Shown here in pieces: positions 1,228-39,735 of a stretch of DNA of 39,764 bases. Made by a program: the position numbers and the translations under genes. The DNA comes from a virus, in the UHGV virus genome UHGV-0145637. One strand, given 5' to 3'. Positions within the stretch are counted from its first letter, which is position 1, and each line of letters starts with the position of its first letter. Under the pieces are notes generated by a model. That model worked only from the letters and a program-made list of their open reading frames with translations, had not been told where the DNA came from and searched no databases.

Positions 1228-3318
1228 ATGTATGTCATTGCAAAAGAACTGATTGGCGCGCCCGGAATGCCTGCTACAACAAAAGGTATTCGCCAGGCAT
1301 TACAACGTTACGTACAAGGGAAAAGCTGTTGTTCCCGTCGTCGCTCAGGCTCTAAAGCAACTGAATACAGCATCGACTGTTTACCTGAAGTGACGCAGCA
1401 GGCATTACGTGAACGCTACGCCCTGCAACTGATGACGCAAAAAGCCGATGAATCACCGGCTCCGGTGGTGACAAAGGCCAGACGCTCACCTGCCGTGGTT
1501 GATGCGGTGGAGGCATATCGCGGATCACCCCAACTGATGGTCGAACGCCTCAATGCCCTGACTGAAAACCAACGTAAAGTGGCAGAGGCACGAATAGCGA
1601 TCGTCAGCGAGGTGCTGAAAATCGCGCAACAACCCGGCTTTAGTTGCGCTAAGGCTATCCGGTTCCTCGTTAACAGCCTGGCACGATCACAACTGGACGA
1701 GCGCATTGTGGCAATGGTTGAGACGGCGAACGCCAAAAAGGGAAACAGCCGCGCGTTGAGTGAAATCACGCTGAAACGCTGGATTGCGGCCTTTAACAAG
1801 GCACAGAACGCCGCTGAACGCCTGCTTTTACTGGCACCGGGTAAACGCCAGGAAATAAAAGCCGAAGATATTAACTGGCTGCCCGAATTTCTGGCGCAGT
1901 ATCGCCAGTCAAACGGCCGACCAATGACCGAGGCTTACGAGGATTTTGTTGCTGAATGGCAGCACCGGCACGCTGATGAGCCTTATATGCTCGATATCAT
2001 GCCCTCTTATGACACCATTCGCCGCGCAATGAAGAAACTGCCGGAAGTGGTGAAACAAAAAGGCCGGGTAACTGGCAGTGAATACCGTCAGCTTGAGGGA
2101 TTCACGCGCCGCGACTGGTCCAGAATGCCGGTGAATTATGTCTGGATTGGTGACGGTCACGGCATGAAGCTGAAATGCGCGCACCCGGTTCACGGGCGGC
2201 CATTCGCACCGGAAGTGACCTTTGTTATCGACGGTGGCACGCGCTTTGTGGTGGGCTGGAGCCTTGACCTGGCTGAAAATGTTTTCGCCGTAGCCGGTGC
2301 CATACAGCACGGTATTCGCCATCATGGCAAACCGTTTCTGTATTACTCGGATAATGGCTCCGGGGAAACCGCCGACGTCCTGGATAAGGAGATTGTGGGG
2401 ATACTGCCACGACTGGGGATTAATCACCCGACAGGGATTGCCGGTAATCCGCAGGGACGGGGCATTATCGAACGGCTTAACCGCACATTACCGATGCGCA
2501 TAGCCCGTAAATACCGCACCTATTTCGGGAAAGGAGCAGATCGCGAGACGTTACGTAAAACCAACCGCGATTTACGCTCGGCATTCAGTGCCCTGCAACA
2601 GGGCAAACGGCTGAACGCCCGGCAGCAGTCAGCGATGCGTGATTTACCGTCCTGGTCTGAACTGATTGATGCCATTCGTGACGGTGTTGAGTGGTACAAC
2701 AACCGGCCGCACGATGAATTACCCATGAAGCCGAACGGTAAACATTACAGCCCGGCGGAGTTCAGAAAAAAACGCCTGGCGGAAGAGGACACGGAAATTG
2801 AATGGCTGTCCGATGTTGAACTGCGGGATATGTTCCGGCCGATGGTGGAGCGCCCTGTAAGACGCTGTGAAATACGCTGGCTGAATAATATTTACTACGC
2901 GCCCGAGCTGCGTGACGAGCATGGCCGTAAGGTACTTATCAGCTATGACATTCATGATGCCGAACGAATTACCGTGCGCCGCCCGGATGGCAGCGTGATT
3001 TGCGAGGCGGTATGGGACGGCAATAAACGCGAAGCCTTCCCTGTCAGCGCGGAATACTACAAACAGCAGCAGCGCCTTAAAGGCATGCGTAAACGCGCAG
3101 AGGAAAAAATCCGTGATGCCGAGGATGAGGTTGTCAACGTGCTGGAGCACAAGCCGCAGGAGCCCTGGCTGGAAAACATATACCGCCCTGTGGGTAATAC
3201 GGTGACCGTTCAGCAACCGGTCGCTGACGATGAACCTGATGAAGAATACGAGCGTAATTTCCAGCGGGGATTGCAACTGCTCGAAGCGAAATTAAAAGAA
3301 AGTGATCCGCTGGCCTGA
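1228..3318 (+). CDS. A: Mu-type DDE transposase A
   Basis: 696 aa (Mu A is 663 aa); position after ner and before the B ATPase; start overlaps ner stop. Confidence 0.85.
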   Translation: MYVIAKELIGAPGMPATTKGIRQALQRYVQGKSCCSRRRSGSKATEYSIDCLPEVTQQALRERYALQLMTQKADESPAPVVTKARRSPAVVDAVEAYRGSPQLMVERLNALTENQRKVAEARIAIVSEVLKIAQQPGFSCAKAIRFLVNSLARSQLDERIVAMVETANAKKGNSRALSEITLKRWIAAFNKAQNAAERLLLLAPGKRQEIKAEDINWLPEFLAQYRQSNGRPMTEAYEDFVAEWQHRHADEPYMLDIMPSYDTIRRAMKKLPEVVKQKGRVTGSEYRQLEGFTRRDWSRMPVNYVWIGDGHGMKLKCAHPVHGRPFAPEVTFVIDGGTRFVVGWSLDLAENVFAVAGAIQHGIRHHGKPFLYYSDNGSGETADVLDKEIVGILPRLGINHPTGIAGNPQGRGIIERLNRTLPMRIARKYRTYFGKGADRETLRKTNRDLRSAFSALQQGKRLNARQQSAMRDLPSWSELIDAIRDGVEWYNNRPHDELPMKPNGKHYSPAEFRKKRLAEEDTEIEWLSDVELRDMFRPMVERPVRRCEIRWLNNIYYAPELRDEHGRKVLISYDIHDAERITVRRPDGSVICEAVWDGNKREAFPVSAEYYKQQQRLKGMRKRAEEKIRDAEDEVVNVLEHKPQEPWLENIYRPVGNTVTVQQPVADDEPDEEYERNFQRGLQLLEAKLKESDPLA

Positions 3319-3400
3319 AATAAAAAAATAACCCGAGGGGTGACTCAGGTTATTTGAGGTTTCAGTCTCGGAGAATGCTGTCTCAAGCGAGGTGAATAAT

Positions 3401-4333
3401 ATGACCGATATTAACGATGTAATCAAGACCATTGATGAACTTATTGATGGCGGCGTACTGACGCAGTATGCCATCGCCAGAGAGGCGGGAATTTCCGACG
3501 GCACATTATCGGCTTTCCGTAAGGGAAAATATAAAGGCGATAACGCTGCTGTGGCTGCTTCCCTGCGCTCCTGGTATGAGAACTGGAATAAACAAAGCGC
3601 ACTGCCGGAACCGCCGCAGTTTGTGGAAACTCAGACAGTCCAGGAGCTGCGCGCACTGTTTCAGGCGGTTCGCCTGATGGGCTGTATTAACGTTATTGTG
3701 GGCGTACCGGGTGTGGGTAAAACGGCCACTGCCCGTAATTACTGCCAGGAGCAACCAAACACCTGGATGATCACCCTGTCACCCGCGCACTCCAGCGTCA
3801 CGGAGTGTCTGCTGGAGCTGGCCGATGCGCTGGGGATTGATTACACCCGCGCGAACAAAGGGGCATTATCCCGCGCCATCCGCCGTCGCCTGATGGGAAC
3901 GCGTGGACTGGTGATTGTGGATGAGGCGGATCATCTTGGTATTGACGGTCTGGAGCAACTCCGGGCAATTCAGGACGCCACGGGGATCGGGATGGTGCTT
4001 ATTGGTAACCCGCGCGGATTGTTTAAAGGTGGACGCCGCGCCTTTGATGATTTATCGCGCCTGTTCAGCCGTCTTGCCCGTACAAAACAACTTCGCAAGG
4101 CCAAAAAGGCGGATGTGCTGGCCATTGCCATGGCGTGGGGGATCAGTGGTGAGGCCGAGCTGGCCGTCATGCAGGCTATCGCTGAAAAGCCGGGAGCGTT
4201 ACGCGTTCTGACACATACGCTTAACCAGGCGTGGCTCACCGCCAGCGGTGAAGGCGCGGCGCTGACAGAAAAACATATTAATGCGGCCTTTAAAGAGGTT
4301 TATACCAACCCTGAATTACTCTCACAGGTGTGA
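3401..4333 (+). CDS. B: Transposition ATPase / target DNA activator B
   Basis: Walker A GVPGVGKT; N-terminal HTH; overall resemblance to MuB as recalled; GAGGTG RBS 7 nt before the ATG at 3401. Confidence 0.85.
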   Translation: MTDINDVIKTIDELIDGGVLTQYAIAREAGISDGTLSAFRKGKYKGDNAAVAASLRSWYENWNKQSALPEPPQFVETQTVQELRALFQAVRLMGCINVIVGVPGVGKTATARNYCQEQPNTWMITLSPAHSSVTECLLELADALGIDYTRANKGALSRAIRRRLMGTRGLVIVDEADHLGIDGLEQLRAIQDATGIGMVLIGNPRGLFKGGRRAFDDLSRLFSRLARTKQLRKAKKADVLAIAMAWGISGEAELAVMQAIAEKPGALRVLTHTLNQAWLTASGEGAALTEKHINAAFKEVYTNPELLSQV

Positions 4334-32040: not shown

Positions 32041-32921
32041 TGTTTCATGTTGATAATAATTCCGGCGTGGCGAATATGCCTGCGCTGGCACCGGCGCAGA
32101 GTAATACCACCACCTGGTTTACCGAAGGTGACGGACAAAAAGGTATCAGCTGGATTGGTCAGGACTGGCTGAATATTCTCCAGGCCGAACTGCTGAATAT
32201 TCTGGCTGAAGCCAGTATTCAGCCGGATAAGGCGCAGTTAAACCAGCTTACGCTGTCCATTAAAGCCATTATCGCTGCGAATGCCTTTTCCCGGAAAAAT
32301 AACCTGAAAGAAATTGCTGATGCCGGTGCGGAGGCCCAGCGTCTGGCCCGTGGTTATCTTGGTCTGGGGACGCTTGCCACAAAAAACAGTCTTGGTCCCG
32401 CTGACGTTAATGCCCTGGCGAAGGATCAGAATCTCGCCGACCTGGAGAATAAGGGAACCGCCCGTAATAATCTGGATGTTTACAGCAAAAGCGAAGGTGA
32501 TAACCGTTACCTGCGCAGGGAGCAGAACGGCGCAGACATTCCGGATAAAGGGGCTTTTATCGATAACGTCGGTTTACGGGAAACGGTAAACAGGGCGGCG
32601 AATGCCCTGCCATCGGACGGCACCGCCGTTGCCGCGAACAGGCTGGCAAATGCCCACACAATTAATGGTGTTCCCTTTGACGGGACGCAGGATATCACTA
32701 TCTCATCAGGAACAGTAACCGCCATAAGACTGGGGTCGGTGACCGCACATATGCCCGGAACATGGGAAAGCTGGGATCTGAATCTGGGGGGCGGCAATGT
32801 TCTTACCGGAATTAAAGTACAGGATGTCGGTAAGAATACGGCAGATAACGTCGGCGGCGTGTATTACCGGCCGTTGCAGTATCTGTTAAATGGAGCATGG
32901 GTGACGGCTGCAAGTATATAA
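32040..32921 (+). CDS. Tail fibre protein (Mu S-like), C-terminus inside the invertible segment
   Basis: N-terminus [20 protein letters not shown]...WFTEG resembles Mu/P1 S as recalled; the crossover site lies inside the gene. Confidence 0.8.
32557..32700. repeat. Left inverted repeat of the invertible segment, with gix/hix-like 26-bp crossover site at 32557..32582
   Basis: Site TTATCGATAACG-TC-GGTTTACGGGAA; the following ~70 bp are near-identical to the reverse complement of 33815..33885, with weaker similarity to ~32700. Confidence 0.75.
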
Positions 32922-32930
32922 TGATATTCA

Positions 32931-32954
32931 GAAGGCCTTCCGGCCTTCTTTATT
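32931..32954 (+). terminator. Rho-independent terminator after the tail fibre gene
   Basis: 7-bp stem GAAGGCC / GGCCTTC, loop TTCC, followed by TTTATT; overlaps the stop of the convergent tfa gene. Confidence 0.6.
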
Positions 32955-33474
32955 ACTGTGGCTGCTCAGGCCATTTAATGGCGTTAAATTCAGCTTCTGT
33001 TTTAATGGCGGGTAGTTCCATTTTCTTCACCTGACTGATGTATGCCATCCATTGGGTAAGTGCTGCTCTGTCTTCATCGCTGATGGTGCCCAGTTGTAGC
33101 TCCGTTCTCCAGTCATTAATTTTTTCATATGCCTGATTAAGATATGACTGGCGCATTGCTTCCAGTTTTCTTGCGTAGTTAACCGGAATACGGGAGATTA
33201 TGCCATTATCAAACTTCCAGTTTCCTGAAATATCCGTGCCTTCAGGGAGTTCATCGACCTCAACCACAGAAAACCCCGCAGGATACAGCGCCGAGGCGTC
33301 CTGTGATATTGAGCAGATAACGCCGCTGTCAGGTGTTATGCAAAGTTTATATTTTTTGGTGAATAATGGCAGGGATTCGTAGAAATCCTTACCATCTTCA
33401 CTCTGGAAATACTGAACATTATTACCATATGGCATATTTTCAGGATAATAACGGGTTATATTTTTTAGTTCCAT
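32953..33474 (-). CDS. Tail fibre assembly chaperone (Tfa / U-like), inside the invertible segment
   Basis: 173 aa on the minus strand with AGGAGG RBS, directly downstream of the alternative fibre C-terminus; C-terminal ...AIKWPEQPQ resembles Tfa endings. Confidence 0.7.
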   Translation of the reverse strand: MELKNITRYYPENMPYGNNVQYFQSEDGKDFYESLPLFTKKYKLCITPDSGVICSISQDASALYPAGFSVVEVDELPEGTDISGNWKFDNGIISRIPVNYARKLEAMRQSYLNQAYEKINDWRTELQLGTISDEDRAALTQWMAYISQVKKMELPAIKTEAEFNAIKWPEQPQ

Positions 33475-33525
33475 AAAATCCTCCTGGAAATAAATCTGTT
33501 TTAAAATATATTATTTACTGACTAT

Positions 33526-33885
33526 TTATAACTGAGATACCGTAATCCATGTACCTCCGACTAATTTTTGCAGGGGTCTGAATGCTATAAAATCGTTTGA
33601 AGCATCAACTTTACTGTCAATCTGCAGGCCTGCCATAACATTACCGTACGCAGAGTAATATGCCCCACCGTACATTACCTGCCTGTTCTCTGCTCCCAGC
33701 CTGATATCCTGGATATATCGGGAATCCGCATCCTGCTGTGTTATACCAGAAGTGATGTTTATGTCCTGCGTCCCGTCAAAGGGAACCCCATTAATATTTC
33801 TTGGGGTGGCGAGTCTATTCGCGGCAACGGCGGTGCCGTCCGATGGCAGAGCATTCGCCGCCCTGTTTACCGTTTCCCGTAAACC
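33526..33885 (-). other. Alternative tail-fibre C-terminal cassette (S'v), start-codon-less
   Basis: Minus-strand frame is open for 119 codons from the crossover site ([17 protein letters not shown]... to ...GGTWITVSQL stop), in register with the fibre frame. Confidence 0.7.
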
Positions 33886-33899
33886 GAGGTTTTCAGGAA
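33760..33899. repeat. Right inverted repeat, with gix/hix-like crossover site at 33874..33899
   Basis: Reverse complement reads TTCCTGAAAACC-TC-GGTTTACGGGAA, sharing the half-site GGTTTACGGGAA and central TC with the left site. Confidence 0.75.
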
Positions 33900-33964
33900 A
33901 GCCAGGATTAACTCTGTTTTATTCCTCATGCGACAATTCCGGCTTTTTATAATAAGGAAATCGT

Positions 33965-34537
33965 ATGCTGATTGGGTATATCAGGGTGTCAACAAATGAC
34001 CAGAATACGGCGCTACAAAGAAATGCGCTGGAATGTGCAGGATGTGAGCTGTTTTTCGAAGACAGAATAAGCGGTAAGACAAGGGAGCGTCCCGGACTTA
34101 AACGCGCATTAAAGCGACTCCGGCCAGGGGATACCCTGCTGGTCTGGAAACTGGATCGCCTTGGACGCAGTATGCAGCACCTTGTCCTTTTAACAGAAGA
34201 ACTCCGGCAACGCGGCGTTAACTTCCGCAGCATTACGGACAATATTGATACATCCACTCCCATGGGACGTTTCTTTTTCCATATAATGGGCGCGCTGGCG
34301 GAAATGGAGCGGGAACTCATTATTGAACGTACACGCGCGGGTCTTGCTGCTGCCCGTGCTCAGGGGCGTCATGGCGGCAGACCTCAGAAACTGACAGAGA
34401 AAGAGCGGGAGCAAATCGCCCGTTTGCTGGCTAATGGCGAGTCCCGTAAACAAATCGCACTGATATTTGATATTGGCCTTTCCACCCTTTATCGTTATTT
34501 TCCTGCCTCACCAGCTCCGTCACCAAAAGTACCGTGA
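33965..34537 (+). CDS. gin: Serine recombinase DNA invertase (Gin/Hin/Cin/Pin family)
   Basis: MLIGYIRVSTNDQNTALQRNAL... with catalytic-serine motif and C-terminal HTH; near-colinear with Mu Gin as recalled. Confidence 0.9.
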   Translation: MLIGYIRVSTNDQNTALQRNALECAGCELFFEDRISGKTRERPGLKRALKRLRPGDTLLVWKLDRLGRSMQHLVLLTEELRQRGVNFRSITDNIDTSTPMGRFFFHIMGALAEMERELIIERTRAGLAAARAQGRHGGRPQKLTEKEREQIARLLANGESRKQIALIFDIGLSTLYRYFPASPAPSPKVP

Positions 34538-34622: not shown

Positions 34623-36677
34623 ATGTCAGACTCCAAGTGGAAAATGCTCTCCGCCATGCCCGGAGAGTTTTCAGTCAAGGTTGCCGGTGGCACGGTGGCA
34701 TTTATTGAAAGCCCTTTCCGCCCTTCGGGTAATAAAGGGGGGATCACCTTCGCAGACTGCGTGATCCGCTTCAGCACGAAAGAGCCATTATGGGTAATGC
34801 CGGTATCCGGTAATCCCAGTGCAGAAATCACCAGTTCAGGCGTGACTGGCATCATTCCAATCACATCTGACGTGGCCGGAACGCTCACGCCCTCCGACTG
34901 GAATGCACCGGATAACGCCGGGCCTTCCGGTAGCACGAATGGCAGCAGTTCAGAGCCGGAATATTACTTTGTTGTCATTCTCGCGGGTCAGTCAAATGGC
35001 ATGGCCTACGGCGAGGGGCTGCCGTTACCGGATTCGTTTGACCGCCCGGACCCACGCATTAAGCAACTGGCACGCCGCAGTACGGTAACGCCCAACGGTA
35101 CGTCGTGTACATACAACGACATCATTCCGGCAGACCACTGCCTGCATGATGTTCAGGATATGAGCGGGATAAACCACCCGAAAGCTGATCTGGCAAAAGG
35201 CCAGTACGGGACTGTCGGTCAGGGGTTGCATATTGCCAAAAAACTGCTTCCCTATATCCCACAGAATGCCGGGATACTTCTGGTGCCCTGTTGTCGTGGC
35301 GGGTCAGCATTCACCACTGGAGCCGACGGCTCATTCAGTGAGGCCAGCGGTGCTTCCGCTGATTCTTCACGCTGGGGGGCCGGTAAACCTCTGTATCAGG
35401 ACCTGGTAAGCCGCACCAAAGTCGCGCTGGCGAAAAACCCGAAAAACAAACTTCTGGCTGTGGTCTGGATGCAGGGAGAGGCAGACCTTGCCTCAGGAAG
35501 CCAGCAGCATAATAGTTTATTCACGGCCATGGTTCAGCAGTTCAGAACTGACCTGGCTCCGCTTGCTGCGCAGTGCGTGAGTGGAAATGCCACCACGGTG
35601 CCGTGGATTTGCGGTGATACCACGTATTACTGGAAAAACGCTGGCACCGATAAATATGAGGCAGTATACGGTGGCTACAAAGGCAAGGAAGCACAGAAAA
35701 TTTTCTTTGTACCGTTCCTGACGGATGAGAATGGACAGAGCACGCCAACGAATGCTCCGGCGGAAGACCCGGATATTGTGGCTGTCGGGTATTACGGTGC
35801 AGCATCCCGAACCCAGGGCAGTTTTGTTTCGACACAGCGTGACAGCCATTTCAGCTCATGGGCACGCAGGGGCGTCATTTCAGACCGTCTGGCCTCAGCT
35901 ATTATGCTCCATGCAGGGCGCACGGCTGAACTGATGCGCGGGCAGACCGTGACACCACCGGATGAGAAGCCGTCACCTGATACACCATCAAAACCGTCCA
36001 CGCCACCCGCAGACACCACGACGATGAGTACGCTATTTGCTTACCGGGCATCTGAGTCTGAAGGACGGTTGACACCACAGGGTTGGGCTGCCGGAGGTGG
36101 CAAGGCTCAAATCGTGGATGATGCCGGAGCCAGCGGGGGTAAGGCAATGAAACTGACCAAGGAAACAGGAAGAGCCCCCTGGTACCTTGAGCATGATGCT
36201 GGTAATGGTGCGGACCTGCTGGGTAAAGGTGGTCTTGTCAGTTGTCGTTTTAAACTCGATGGCGCGCTTACGGCTAATCAGTACGCACTGGCGCTGTACT
36301 GGCCGGTTTCTGCCCTGCCGCAAGGGGTTACTCTGGAAGGAAATGCCGGTCATAACCTGCTGGCATCGTTCTACGTACAGAGCGATGCCACAGACCTTAA
36401 CGTGATGTATCACAAAGGAAACACGGCGCAGAACACGAAGCTGGGGTCATTCGGCGCATTTAATAACGAATGGCATACGCTGGGCTTCCGTTTTGCCGGT
36501 AACAACAGTATTGAGGTGACACCGGTCATTGATGGTAAGGACGGGACACCATTCATGCTGTCGCAGTCTCCGGTCGGCACGTTTACGGCAGACAAGTTGC
36601 GCGTGACCGATATCACTAAAAATGCGACTTACCCGGTACTGATTGACAGTATCGTGGTGGAAGTGAATAACGCGTAA
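34623..36677 (+). CDS. SGNH-type (sialate-O-acetylesterase-like) esterase domain protein with Pro/Thr linker and C-terminal beta-rich domain
   Basis: Motifs VILAGQSNGMAYGEG and VVWMQGEAD; linker PPDEKPSPDTPSKPSTPPADTTT; about 210-aa C-terminal domain; no N-terminal signal peptide. Confidence 0.5.
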   Translation: MSDSKWKMLSAMPGEFSVKVAGGTVAFIESPFRPSGNKGGITFADCVIRFSTKEPLWVMPVSGNPSAEITSSGVTGIIPITSDVAGTLTPSDWNAPDNAGPSGSTNGSSSEPEYYFVVILAGQSNGMAYGEGLPLPDSFDRPDPRIKQLARRSTVTPNGTSCTYNDIIPADHCLHDVQDMSGINHPKADLAKGQYGTVGQGLHIAKKLLPYIPQNAGILLVPCCRGGSAFTTGADGSFSEASGASADSSRWGAGKPLYQDLVSRTKVALAKNPKNKLLAVVWMQGEADLASGSQQHNSLFTAMVQQFRTDLAPLAAQCVSGNATTVPWICGDTTYYWKNAGTDKYEAVYGGYKGKEAQKIFFVPFLTDENGQSTPTNAPAEDPDIVAVGYYGAASRTQGSFVSTQRDSHFSSWARRGVISDRLASAIMLHAGRTAELMRGQTVTPPDEKPSPDTPSKPSTPPADTTTMSTLFAYRASESEGRLTPQGWAAGGGKAQIVDDAGASGGKAMKLTKETGRAPWYLEHDAGNGADLLGKGGLVSCRFKLDGALTANQYALALYWPVSALPQGVTLEGNAGHNLLASFYVQSDATDLNVMYHKGNTAQNTKLGSFGAFNNEWHTLGFRFAGNNSIEVTPVIDGKDGTPFMLSQSPVGTFTADKLRVTDITKNATYPVLIDSIVVEVNNA

Positions 36678-37964: not shown

Positions 37965-38011
37965 GATTGAGTGATAAAGATATCAACAACAAAGCAGGAG
38001 GTTATGCGGCC

Positions 38012-38212
38012 ATGTATCGAAACATACGGTGCCGACATTGTAACAAGCTACTGGCACGAGCCAGCTTCAGTTATCTGGAAGTTAAATGTCCGCGCTGTAA
38101 AACCCTCAATCAAATCACATCTCAGAGCGCCACAGAGCACCCCACATACACAAGGAAATCCTGTCGTGGGGAACAGAAAGCAAGTTACATCCCGTATCAT
38201 CAGCACGCCTGA
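38012..38212 (+). CDS. com: Com zinc-finger translational activator of mom
   Basis: [10 protein letters not shown]...EVKCPRCK matches the Mu Com zinc finger as recalled (IRCKNCNKLL...IRCPRCK); GCAGGAGG RBS; start at the internal Met of the track ORF. Confidence 0.8.
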
Positions 38213-38903
38213 ACTTATTCACTATAACGACAATATCGTCGGTTATGGCTCCCGTGAGTTACGGGTTGAGACAATAAGTTGCTGGCTGGCCCGGCTGGTC
38301 GTCGTCAATAAACATTACAGCCATCGTTTCGTAAATAATTCCTACCTTCATCTGGGCATATTTTCAGAACGGGAGCTGGTTGGCGTAATGCAATGGGGTT
38401 ATGCCCTTAATCCAAACAATGGTGCACGCGTCGTAACTGGCACGCAGAACCGCGAATATATGGAGCTTAACCGGTTATGGCTGCATGACTGTATGCCGAG
38501 AAACTCCGAATCAAGGGCAATCAGTTACGCGCTCAAACTAATCAGACAACTTTATCCGCAGGTGCAGTGGGTTCAGTCGTTTGCAGATGAGCGTTGTGGC
38601 TGTCTTGGTGTCGTGTACCAGGCAAGCAATTTTGATTATGTAGGCAGTCATGAAACAACATTCTATGAACTTGATGGCGAGTGGTATCACGAGATTTGCA
38701 AGAATGCAATCAAACGAGGAGGACAGCGAGGTGAACATCTGCGGGCTAATATCGACAGAGCCAGTGTTCATAAATTCCGTCAGTTTCGTTACATCCGGTT
38801 TCTGGACAAGAGAGCCAGAAAACGCCTTAACACAAAGCTATTCAAAGTCCAGCCTTACCCAAAACCACAAACAGTTAAAACTGGTTTGAAAGAGAGTGAA
38901 TGA
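38166..38903 (+). CDS. mom: Mom-like DNA modification protein
   Basis: 246-aa frame beginning inside the 3' end of com (GTG at 38166 with AGGAAA upstream), as in Mu; assigned by position and size only. Confidence 0.55.
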
Positions 38904-38944
38904 ACGCTTAAAAACTCATTCTAAAACTCAAAAGAAAAGCGCCG

Positions 38945-39036
38945 ATTTAGTATCAAATAAGTTGCGTATCGGCGTTTTTCAGCGGTATCAAATGAAATGC
39001 AAATCGGTATCAAAAAAATCGCCGCGCTATAATACA
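38945..39036. repeat. Right-end region with three GTATCAAA repeats (attR-like) and putative terminus ...TAATACA
   Basis: GTATCAAA at 38950, 38985 and 39007; reverse complement of the terminus begins TGTATTATAGCG. Confidence 0.5.
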
Positions 39037-39735
39037 TGCGCTTGCTTGCGCACTCCAGCGCCAGCTGTTTGATGTCGTAGTTCGGATCGCCTTTTTTATG
39101 GTTCAGACCATCGCGAATCGCAAACACCAGTTTCGGGAACACCGCAGTTTTACGGTTTTTACCGAGGCCTGCGATACGGTTACGCAGGATAGATTCCTGA
39201 ATCAGGCGCGACTCCCAGCTGGTGCCCAGACCAAAACCAAAGGTTACAAACGGCGTCTGACCGTTGGCGGTGTGCAGGGTGTTTACTTCGTACTCCAGCG
39301 ACTGGAAGGCATCGTAGCACTCTTTAATGGTACGAGAGTTAGCGTAGCCTTCGGCGTCCGGGATGTTCCACTCTTCTGCGGTCTTGCGATGTTTGTTGTA
39401 GCTGGCGGTAACAAACGGCGCCAGCACTTCATCGATACGGTTAATGGTGGTGCCGCCATAAATATGGCTGGCGACCTGAGCAATAATCTGCGCAGTTACC
39501 GCGGTTGCCGTAGAGATCGACTTCGGCGGTTCAATCTCGGCGTTCCCCATCTTAAAGCCCTGGGTCAGCATGCCTTTCAGGTCGATCAACATGCAGTTGA
39601 ACATCGGGAAGAACGGCGAGTAATCGAGATCGTGATAGTGAATATCGCCACGCTCATGTGCCTGCACCACGTCACGCGGCAGCAGGTGCTGACGTGCATA
39701 GTGTTTAGCCACGATCCCGGCCAGCAGGTCGCGCT
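39037..39735 (-). CDS. nrdD: Host anaerobic ribonucleoside-triphosphate reductase, 5'-partial and interrupted at the phage junction
   Basis: Minus-strand translation AKHYARQHLLPRDVVQAHERGDIHYHDLDYSPFFPMFNCMLIDLKG... resembles enterobacterial NrdD as recalled; the frame runs out of the contig and degenerates on entering phage DNA after ...ECASKRMY. Confidence 0.6.

Follow-up and report, generated by a model that had tools for sequence, protein, structure and literature searches.

The 39,764-nucleotide (nt) virus genome UHGV-0145637 (the window; coordinates refer to this whole stretch unless another locus is named) carries a Mu-like prophage of E. coli in which the end of the tail-fibre gene lies within an invertible segment of 1.3 kb, occupying the place of the G segment in phage Mu. 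From left to right, the locus holds the fibre gene with its current C-terminal tip (tip A), a hairpin, a minus-strand gene for a tail-fibre assembly chaperone (tfa), an AT-rich spacer and a start-less alternative C terminus (tip B), followed by an invertase gene (Table 1). An initial annotation of the DNA had listed the current tip, a terminator, a minus-strand tfa and a start-less in-frame tip of 119 codons, all of which are present. Textbooks use invertible fibre switches to illustrate how phages vary their host range in a programmed way, and in that form each tip has a chaperone of its own. Here the switch appears to work in nature with only one tfa gene, and a single generalist Tfa probably serves both tips.

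Two 26-bp gix-like sites bound the segment in inverted orientation; as first described, both contain the inner half-site GGTTTACGGGAA and a TC/GA core. Nowhere else in the 39.8-kb window does a site reach 16 of 24 against the gix consensus; shuffled windows gave 0.23 sites at 17 or above and zero at 22 or above. For comparison, the crossover sites of SfMu are TTATCTAAAACCTCGGTTTACAGGAA and TTCCTGTAAACCGACGTTTTGGATAA. The sites lie at the outer ends of inverted repeats of ~150 bp, and the repeat similarity reported initially holds on careful alignment: 32562-32647 pairs with 33809-33894 (86 nt, 93% complementary) and 32661-32710 with 33746-33795 (50 nt, 84% complementary). A multi-site shufflon or multiple-inversion system (Min of p15B, shufflons) was considered and rejected, as only two sites occur in the window and two in each of its relatives. 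Inside the segment, the stop codons of tip A and tfa are 31 nt apart, with a clean hairpin and no pseudogene remnant between them.

Table 1 Features of the invertible fibre locus and the surrounding prophage (window coordinates).
Feature	Coordinates	Strand	Remarks
MuA and MuB transposition genes	1228-4333	+	
Tail-fibre gene as now assembled, 293 aa	32040-32921	+	Constant part to about 32569, then tip A
Left 26-bp gix-like crossover site	32557-32582	+	TTATCGATAACGTCGGTTTACGGGAA; core TC 32569-32570; inside the fibre open reading frame, encodes ..NVGLRE..
Left inverted-repeat arm	32562-32710		Encodes a shared stretch of 37 residues
Tip A, current C-terminal receptor-binding end	32570-32921	+	ADN[IV]GGVYYRP class; no co-oriented tfa downstream
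GC-rich hairpin, terminator-like	32930-32949		Stem of 8 bp with a T-run after it on the + strand; between the convergent stops of tip A and tfa
tfa, tail-fibre assembly chaperone gene, 173 aa	32953-33474	-	Pfam PF02413 Caudo_TAP
AT-rich spacer, 51 nt, tip B stop to tfa start	33475-33525	-	AGGAGG ribosome-binding site; candidate location for an independent tfa promoter
Tip B, start-less alternative fibre C terminus, 119 codons + stop	33526-33885	-	Begins at the Gly-Leu encoded in the site
Right inverted-repeat arm	33746-33894		Pairs with the left arm
Right 26-bp crossover site	33874-33899	+	TTCCCGTAAACCGAGGTTTTCAGGAA; core GA 33886-33887; reverse complement TTCCTGAAAACCTCGGTTTACGGGAA
Gin-type small serine DNA invertase, 190 aa	33965-34537	+	Catalytic-serine motif YIRVSTNDQ
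com and mom	37967-38903		Downstream of the invertase gene and three inserted genes
nrdD fragment (anaerobic ribonucleotide reductase)	38921-39712	-	Marks insertion into nrdD

The proteins of the locus have counterparts in Mu. Residues 1-191 of the fibre align to residues 1-184 of Mu S (PDB 5yvq/8ju3, E about 1e-46), and the left site falls at the same point of the fibre gene as in Mu and SfMu, encoding GL(Q/R)ETVN. Tip A aligns to the Mu S' chimera tip (8ju3 residues 423-488) and better to the short-fibre tip of phiTE (9cuy, E 5e-11), with 45-52% identity to the SfMu, P1-like and P2 tips; tip B aligns to the Mu S tip (5yvq residues 435-502, E 8e-8), and RefSeq lists it as a 'phage tail protein' truncated at the N terminus. 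Tfa belongs to the Caudo_TAP family, in which a variable N-domain is joined to a conserved C-terminal domain: it scores 69 bits in PF02413 (cut-off 22; E 4.8e-19) and matches Mu U (5yvq_B, E 4e-16). The initial description of the segment stands but left out one member of the system, the invertase gene: its product matches Resolvase (E 1.6e-51) and HTH_7 (E 4.9e-15) in Pfam and Mu Gin over residues 1-184 (4m6f, E 2.5e-88), and its first 240 nt, the part of such genes in which the Fis-dependent recombinational enhancer lies, are 65-82% identical to SfMu gin per 60-nt block. Taken together, the matches of invertase to Gin, fibre N terminus to S, tips to S and S' and Tfa to U identify the element, on sequence comparison, as a reduced ('mini-G') version of Mu's invertible G segment and a true homologue of it, brought down to 1.3 kb by lacking about 210 residues of fibre shaft and one chaperone gene. 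Inverting 32569-33887 in silico leaves the fibre in frame; the product has 296 aa and differs in its last ~75 residues. RefSeq annotates this same 296-aa frame in the genome of NCCP 13983.

To look for the inversion in natural genomes, we searched 5,426 complete E. coli genomes with both the unaltered sequence and a version flipped in silico. The current orientation gave 18 full-length single-piece matches at 98.7% identity or above, and the flipped orientation gave four full-length single matches at 99.7-99.9% (DLI.5a, TOE17, NCCP 13983 and FORC_043). DLI.5a and TOE17 each carry two prophage copies in opposite orientations. In the apparently near-clonal pair FORC_029 (5,189,944 bp) and NCCP 13983 (5,189,943 bp), the 8.6-kb loci differ only by an exact inversion, whose permitted boundaries are 32569-32588 and 33868-33887; the outermost of these are the TC/GA cores. 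In an IMG/VR relative (L113, positions 4518 and 5893), both cores read TT/AA instead of TC/GA, and this concerted change supports a working switch, since the two positions must match for religation. Judged from these genomes, the inversion is evidently real in nature and the switch a working one. The initial annotation thus survives at its core: the flipped form exists in public genomes and the repeats align. With the Gin-like invertase added, the sites, the in-frame flip and the occurrence of both orientations describe a Gin-type invertible tail-fibre segment homologous to Mu G.

Draft and IMG/VR contigs often stop in the fibre gene at residues ~169-224 or upstream of the invertase gene at a distance of 70-130 nt. 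Those ending at the repeat comprise L005, L007, L010, L012, L013, L015, L021, L022, L025 and L027, together with L118-L120, L124-L127, L129 and L130. Short-read assemblers break contigs at repeats when orientations are mixed, and ends at the inverted repeat are expected if the populations held both orientations.

Complete genomes favour one orientation. We compared two kinds of single-tfa invertible locus in E. coli, the window type (about 26 complete genomes) and the Sp18/O157 type (about 207). Orientation A, with tfa antisense, accounts for 20 of the 26 window-type and 182 of the 207 Sp18/O157-type matches, or ~87% overall uncorrected for clonal kinship, whereas induced Mu lysates are reported to contain the two G orientations in equal ratio (PMC4406740). 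Asymmetry of the sites cannot explain this bias, because both sites are the same in either orientation. It could stem from clonal inheritance with slow switching, or from a founder effect if only A-state phage may infect E. coli, and it speaks for the A fibre as the working one on this host.

The two slots of the segment are not equivalent. The tfa-distal slot A always holds one tip class (ADN[IV]GGVYYRP), in two subtypes, A1 (that of the window) and A2, whereas in slot B, next to tfa, four tips occur that differ widely from one another. Between the window and relatives of the same subtype, the ratio of non-synonymous to synonymous substitution rates (dN/dS) of tip A is 0.10 at a dS of 0.37; for the A2 alleles, synonymous sites are saturated, with a dN of 0.14. 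Tip A is thus under purifying selection and not junk.

A tfa profile search of the prophage returned one match only. Five diverged E. coli relatives (81-96% nucleotide identity) share the order fibre, tfa, start-less tip and invertase with one tfa each, and IMG/VR loci of the same type likewise have one; the initial claim of a single chaperone gene linked to the alternative tip therefore extends to all relatives examined. After a flip, tfa lies co-oriented downstream of tip B across the 51-nt spacer, and for tip A it is convergent with the fibre gene. Mu differs in having U plus U', one co-oriented with each tip, and two tfa genes are also found in SfMu (genes 50 and 51, U and U') and in a P1-like phage. 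The first ~19 codons of the window tfa (MELKNITRYYPENMPYGNN) and the spacer upstream of it differ from those of three relatives (L082-L084; MQLINVKRYYPEHKPYGND), with ~90% identity otherwise, which points to a putative recombination breakpoint inside the 5' end of tfa, brought in with tip B.

The initial annotation took this arrangement to mean that the current orientation makes a fibre with no dedicated chaperone in cis. It is correct that no co-oriented tfa follows tip A; that the A fibre goes without a chaperone is unlikely, given the conserved Tfa, the tfa-linked homologues of tip A and the locked derivatives described below. Were tip A chaperone-independent, Tfa would act on tip B only and the A fibre would fold alone or with host chaperones. 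Such a scheme would fit the antisense position of tfa relative to the late operon in orientation A, with no convincing promoter ahead of it, and the predominance of orientation A in genomes, which must therefore give functional phage. It would also fit single-tfa segments of P2-like prophages (L004, L023, L026 and L029), in which tfa sits tight on the proximal tip, so that chaperone-less distal tips look viable. A-class tips elsewhere speak against it: in SfMu (at the S' position), in the P1-like phage and in the lytic phage CR3, each is followed directly by a tfa gene, which marks the class as chaperone-associated outside the window family. The phiTE structure paper contains no discussion of a chaperone for its A-class short fibre.

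Variation in Tfa itself also speaks against independence of tip A. The N-terminal domain of Tfa is described as fibre-binding in the summary of North et al. 2019 given in PMC9608196. In four of five loci (the window, L082, L083 and L089), this domain is 82-93% identical, and the B tips adjoining the same tfa genes are only 33-48% identical, with A and B tips within one locus 40-48% identical. The domain thus does not co-vary with the B tips, and since it is conserved beside tips as divergent from one another as A is from B, one Tfa evidently copes with both.

Derivatives locked in orientation A also bear on the question. E. coli CI5, M1, M3 and M18 have lost tip B and the right site and retain only the final ~65 nt of the invertase gene, with the left site, tip A and antisense tfa kept in the convergent layout. 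The locked loci (L087/L095 in M3, L094 in CI5, and L101, L102 and L104-L108 in IMG/VR) lack the equivalent of 33481-34470 and carry instead a stretch of ~145 nt with a degenerate remnant of the 3' end of tip B; all have the same right endpoint, 34470/34471. The CI5 copy lies in xdhA and the M3 copy in a flgL-like gene. These two are 92% identical over 12.9 kb, and their junctions are identical in position with 14 substitutions in the 304 nt there. The seven IMG/VR contigs combine the common right endpoint with either A1 or A2 tips. The nine locked loci hold six different tfa alleles, each of them intact and encoding 173 aa; compared in pairs, they give dN/dS of 0.10-0.23 at dS up to 0.43. CI5 and M3 tfa differ by 21 synonymous and 13 non-synonymous changes (Fisher p 1e-7), which we regard as similar to neighbouring baseplate genes of the same pair (dN/dS 0.01-0.125). 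The gene in locked-A derivatives is therefore under purifying selection, although these lineages can never express tip B. As tfa can never be co-oriented with the fibre gene in locked forms and is kept all the same, a need for Tfa with tip A is the simplest explanation. With this evidence in place, we consider chaperone independence of tip A unlikely, and a single generalist Tfa serving both tips the probable state of affairs.

We therefore propose the following scheme, in which both the action of Tfa on tip A and the route of tfa expression are what we infer. The Gin-like invertase recombines the inverted 26-bp sites at their 2-bp cores and flips 32569-33887. This exchanges the last ~116-119 fibre codons between tip A and tip B, and with them receptor specificity; sequence, homology and natural variants show this much. 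In orientation B, tfa can be read with the fibre operon. In orientation A, tfa is convergent to the fibre gene and would have to be transcribed alone, most likely from the constrained spacer as a candidate promoter, a step that we hold with less assurance than the sharing of Tfa.

The spacer is unusual in length and conservation. Between tip B and tfa it measures 51-121 nt in the window family, compared with 1-2 nt in SfMu and 0-6 nt over SfMu and the P1-like phage; in P2-like loci, 23 of 24 tfa genes have -1 to 16 nt and the remaining one 113 nt. Its commonest type, compared over eight loci (L082 3008-3093; L083, L084, L094, L095, L101, L105 and L107), has 75 invariant positions out of 86 and a mean divergence of 5%, compared with tfa dS of 0.1-0.43. 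A dyad within it, CTGAAAATATGCGTTATTTCAG, overlaps the tip B stop codon. The conserved spacer thus looks regulatory. Folded as RNA, it gave no stable structure (z +1.1). We also scanned for the Mu C-type late-promoter motif TTAT-N6-ATAA, a consensus for which we do not vouch; its one match in the window was at chance level and not near tfa, and the candidate was dropped.

Several observations weigh against sharing of Tfa and against a promoter in the spacer. No sigma-70-like motif of at least 9 of 12 positions lies upstream of tfa on its own strand in the window, L082 or L085, and a laxer scan gives 8/12 matches only. Better promoter-like motifs are found on the tfa strand in locked forms, exactly at the deletion junction (ATGATA-17-TATAAT, 10/12, in CI5; 9/12 in M3). 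A promoter may therefore have had to be gained on loss of the switch, and the invertible form may lack one. Moreover, the window spacer, along with the first ~19 tfa codons, is of another type than the conserved spacer. Selection on tfa in locked lineages could echo recombination with invertible relatives, in which it would act through orientation B; tip A alleles have evidently been exchanged between lineages, and no window-type locus was among the locked derivatives found. Finally, in single-tfa P2-like prophages tfa is tightly coupled to the proximal tip without a spacer, and these phages must have some other solution. Allowing for these points, the fuller proposition that the window clade has uncoupled the chaperone from the tip, so that one generalist tfa, transcribed from the constrained spacer whatever the orientation, would fold any tip in either slot, is tentative, with the chances close to even but slightly short of it.

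Tfa for A fibres might instead be supplied in trans, by other resident prophages or by a minority of flipped Mu copies in the same induced cell. E. coli genomes usually hold several tfa genes, and some strains carry two copies of this prophage in opposite orientations. The C-terminal domain of Tfa is, in addition, summarised as conserved and modular across phages (PMC9608196, from North et al. 2019; PMC8174754). A phage reliant on other prophages, however, could not propagate reliably in new hosts, and the combination of tip A with the one-tfa layout persists in lineages so far apart that their synonymous divergence is saturated. G inversion is reported to be infrequent during lytic growth (PMC10434027), and in locked derivatives, where no flip can occur, tfa is still kept by selection. 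We accordingly find supply in trans improbable, and its narrower form, in which rare flipped genomes sharing the induced cell are the sole source of Tfa for the A fibres of invertible prophages, improbable at best. The weakest alternative is that the layout reflects decay, with a second tfa deleted and orientation A a defective 'off' state of a degenerating prophage: the fibre is far shorter than Mu S (293 compared with 504 aa), the segment is reduced to 1.3 kb and the invertase gene is frameshifted in some relatives, but the clean 31-nt hairpin interval, the selection on tip A (dN/dS 0.10) with two tip A classes maintained, the intact structural genes and the recent transposition indicated by many insertion sites and sometimes two copies per genome leave decay very improbable.

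On layout and sequence, the mechanism is of the Gin/Cin/Pin/Hin class with the Mu G segment as its nearest relative; the single chaperone, the size and the spacer set it apart from the canonical form. Mu G, also found in SfMu and D108, has the same layout, Gin, gix-like sites, left-site position, S/S' tips and U-type Tfa, with com/mom downstream. It differs in size, at about 3 kb, and in the length of the variable part, which is only ~116-119 codons in the window since the middle ~210 residues of Mu S are absent from the window fibre. The C segment of P1 (Cin) and the P segment of e14 (PinE) likewise use a serine invertase to flip alternative fibre C termini. An A-class tip with 52% identity to tip A occurs in a P1-like phage; unlike the window, P1-like MH422554 has two convergent tfa genes, one per tip, and e14 has two as well, tfaE and tfaP (PMC12529663). 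The Mu-like fibre inversion confirmed by long reads in Milman et al. 2023 (CP066032.1) proved to be a canonical two-tfa G segment and not of the window type.

P2-like prophages of Siccibacter, Enterobacter, Erwinia and Salmonella offer a parallel in layout, with two hix/gix-like sites, one tfa beside the invertase-proximal tip and a distal tip without tfa. We found four such loci (L004 5198-6925, L023 5655-6946, L026 5026-6442 and L029 4167-6014), all assembled in the tfa-antisense orientation; the same scan gave nine other loci with the usual two convergent tfa genes. The single-tfa loci differ from the window in their unrelated fibre and tip families and in tfa spacers of -1 to 8 nt. A profile built from tips A and B gave no match to the P2-like tips, and these loci are compared by layout only. 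Our literature search found no publication discussing the single-tfa layout of P2-like prophages, and no paper in the open-access literature on a one-chaperone invertible fibre segment, which is not proof of novelty. Carotovoricin Er (Ein invertase) also swaps fibre C termini by inversion, in a Pectobacterium tailocin and not a transposable phage. There, ein is present in 47% of clusters, with presence or absence varying across strains (PMC13195805), a pattern that parallels the invertase-less locked derivatives.

The form with a single chaperone and tip cassettes of ~350 bp is widespread, occurring in more than 200 complete E. coli genomes that include O157-type strains, and it suggests that Tfa is less strictly matched to its tip than one would expect from the U/U' pair. 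Those who wish to engineer the receptor range of phages or tailocins have in it a minimal template. If the chaperone is indeed uncoupled from the tip, a host-range cassette of ~350 bp could be exchanged or inverted while its chaperone stayed in place, and the switch could be discarded without functional loss, as in the locked lineages, which provide natural controls on the need for Tfa with tip A. The strong bias towards one orientation also raises the question of what sets the A:B ratio.

The surrounding prophage appears complete, from MuA/MuB through com and mom, with a Mu-like gene order throughout. Baseplate genes gp45-gp48 sit upstream of the fibre segment, and the structural genes are all intact in the window and in its relatives. 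Related prophages are inserted elsewhere (in xdhA, in a flgL-like gene, beside dusA), as would fit active transposition. The window also encodes, between the invertase gene and com/mom, a 684-aa protein (34623-36677, + strand) with a SASA (sialate O-acetylesterase-type) domain and a C-terminal DUF6645. Nothing comparable stands at that place in Mu, and the gene is conserved in relatives, being truncated in one; its product could be a receptor-modifying or lysogenic-conversion enzyme.

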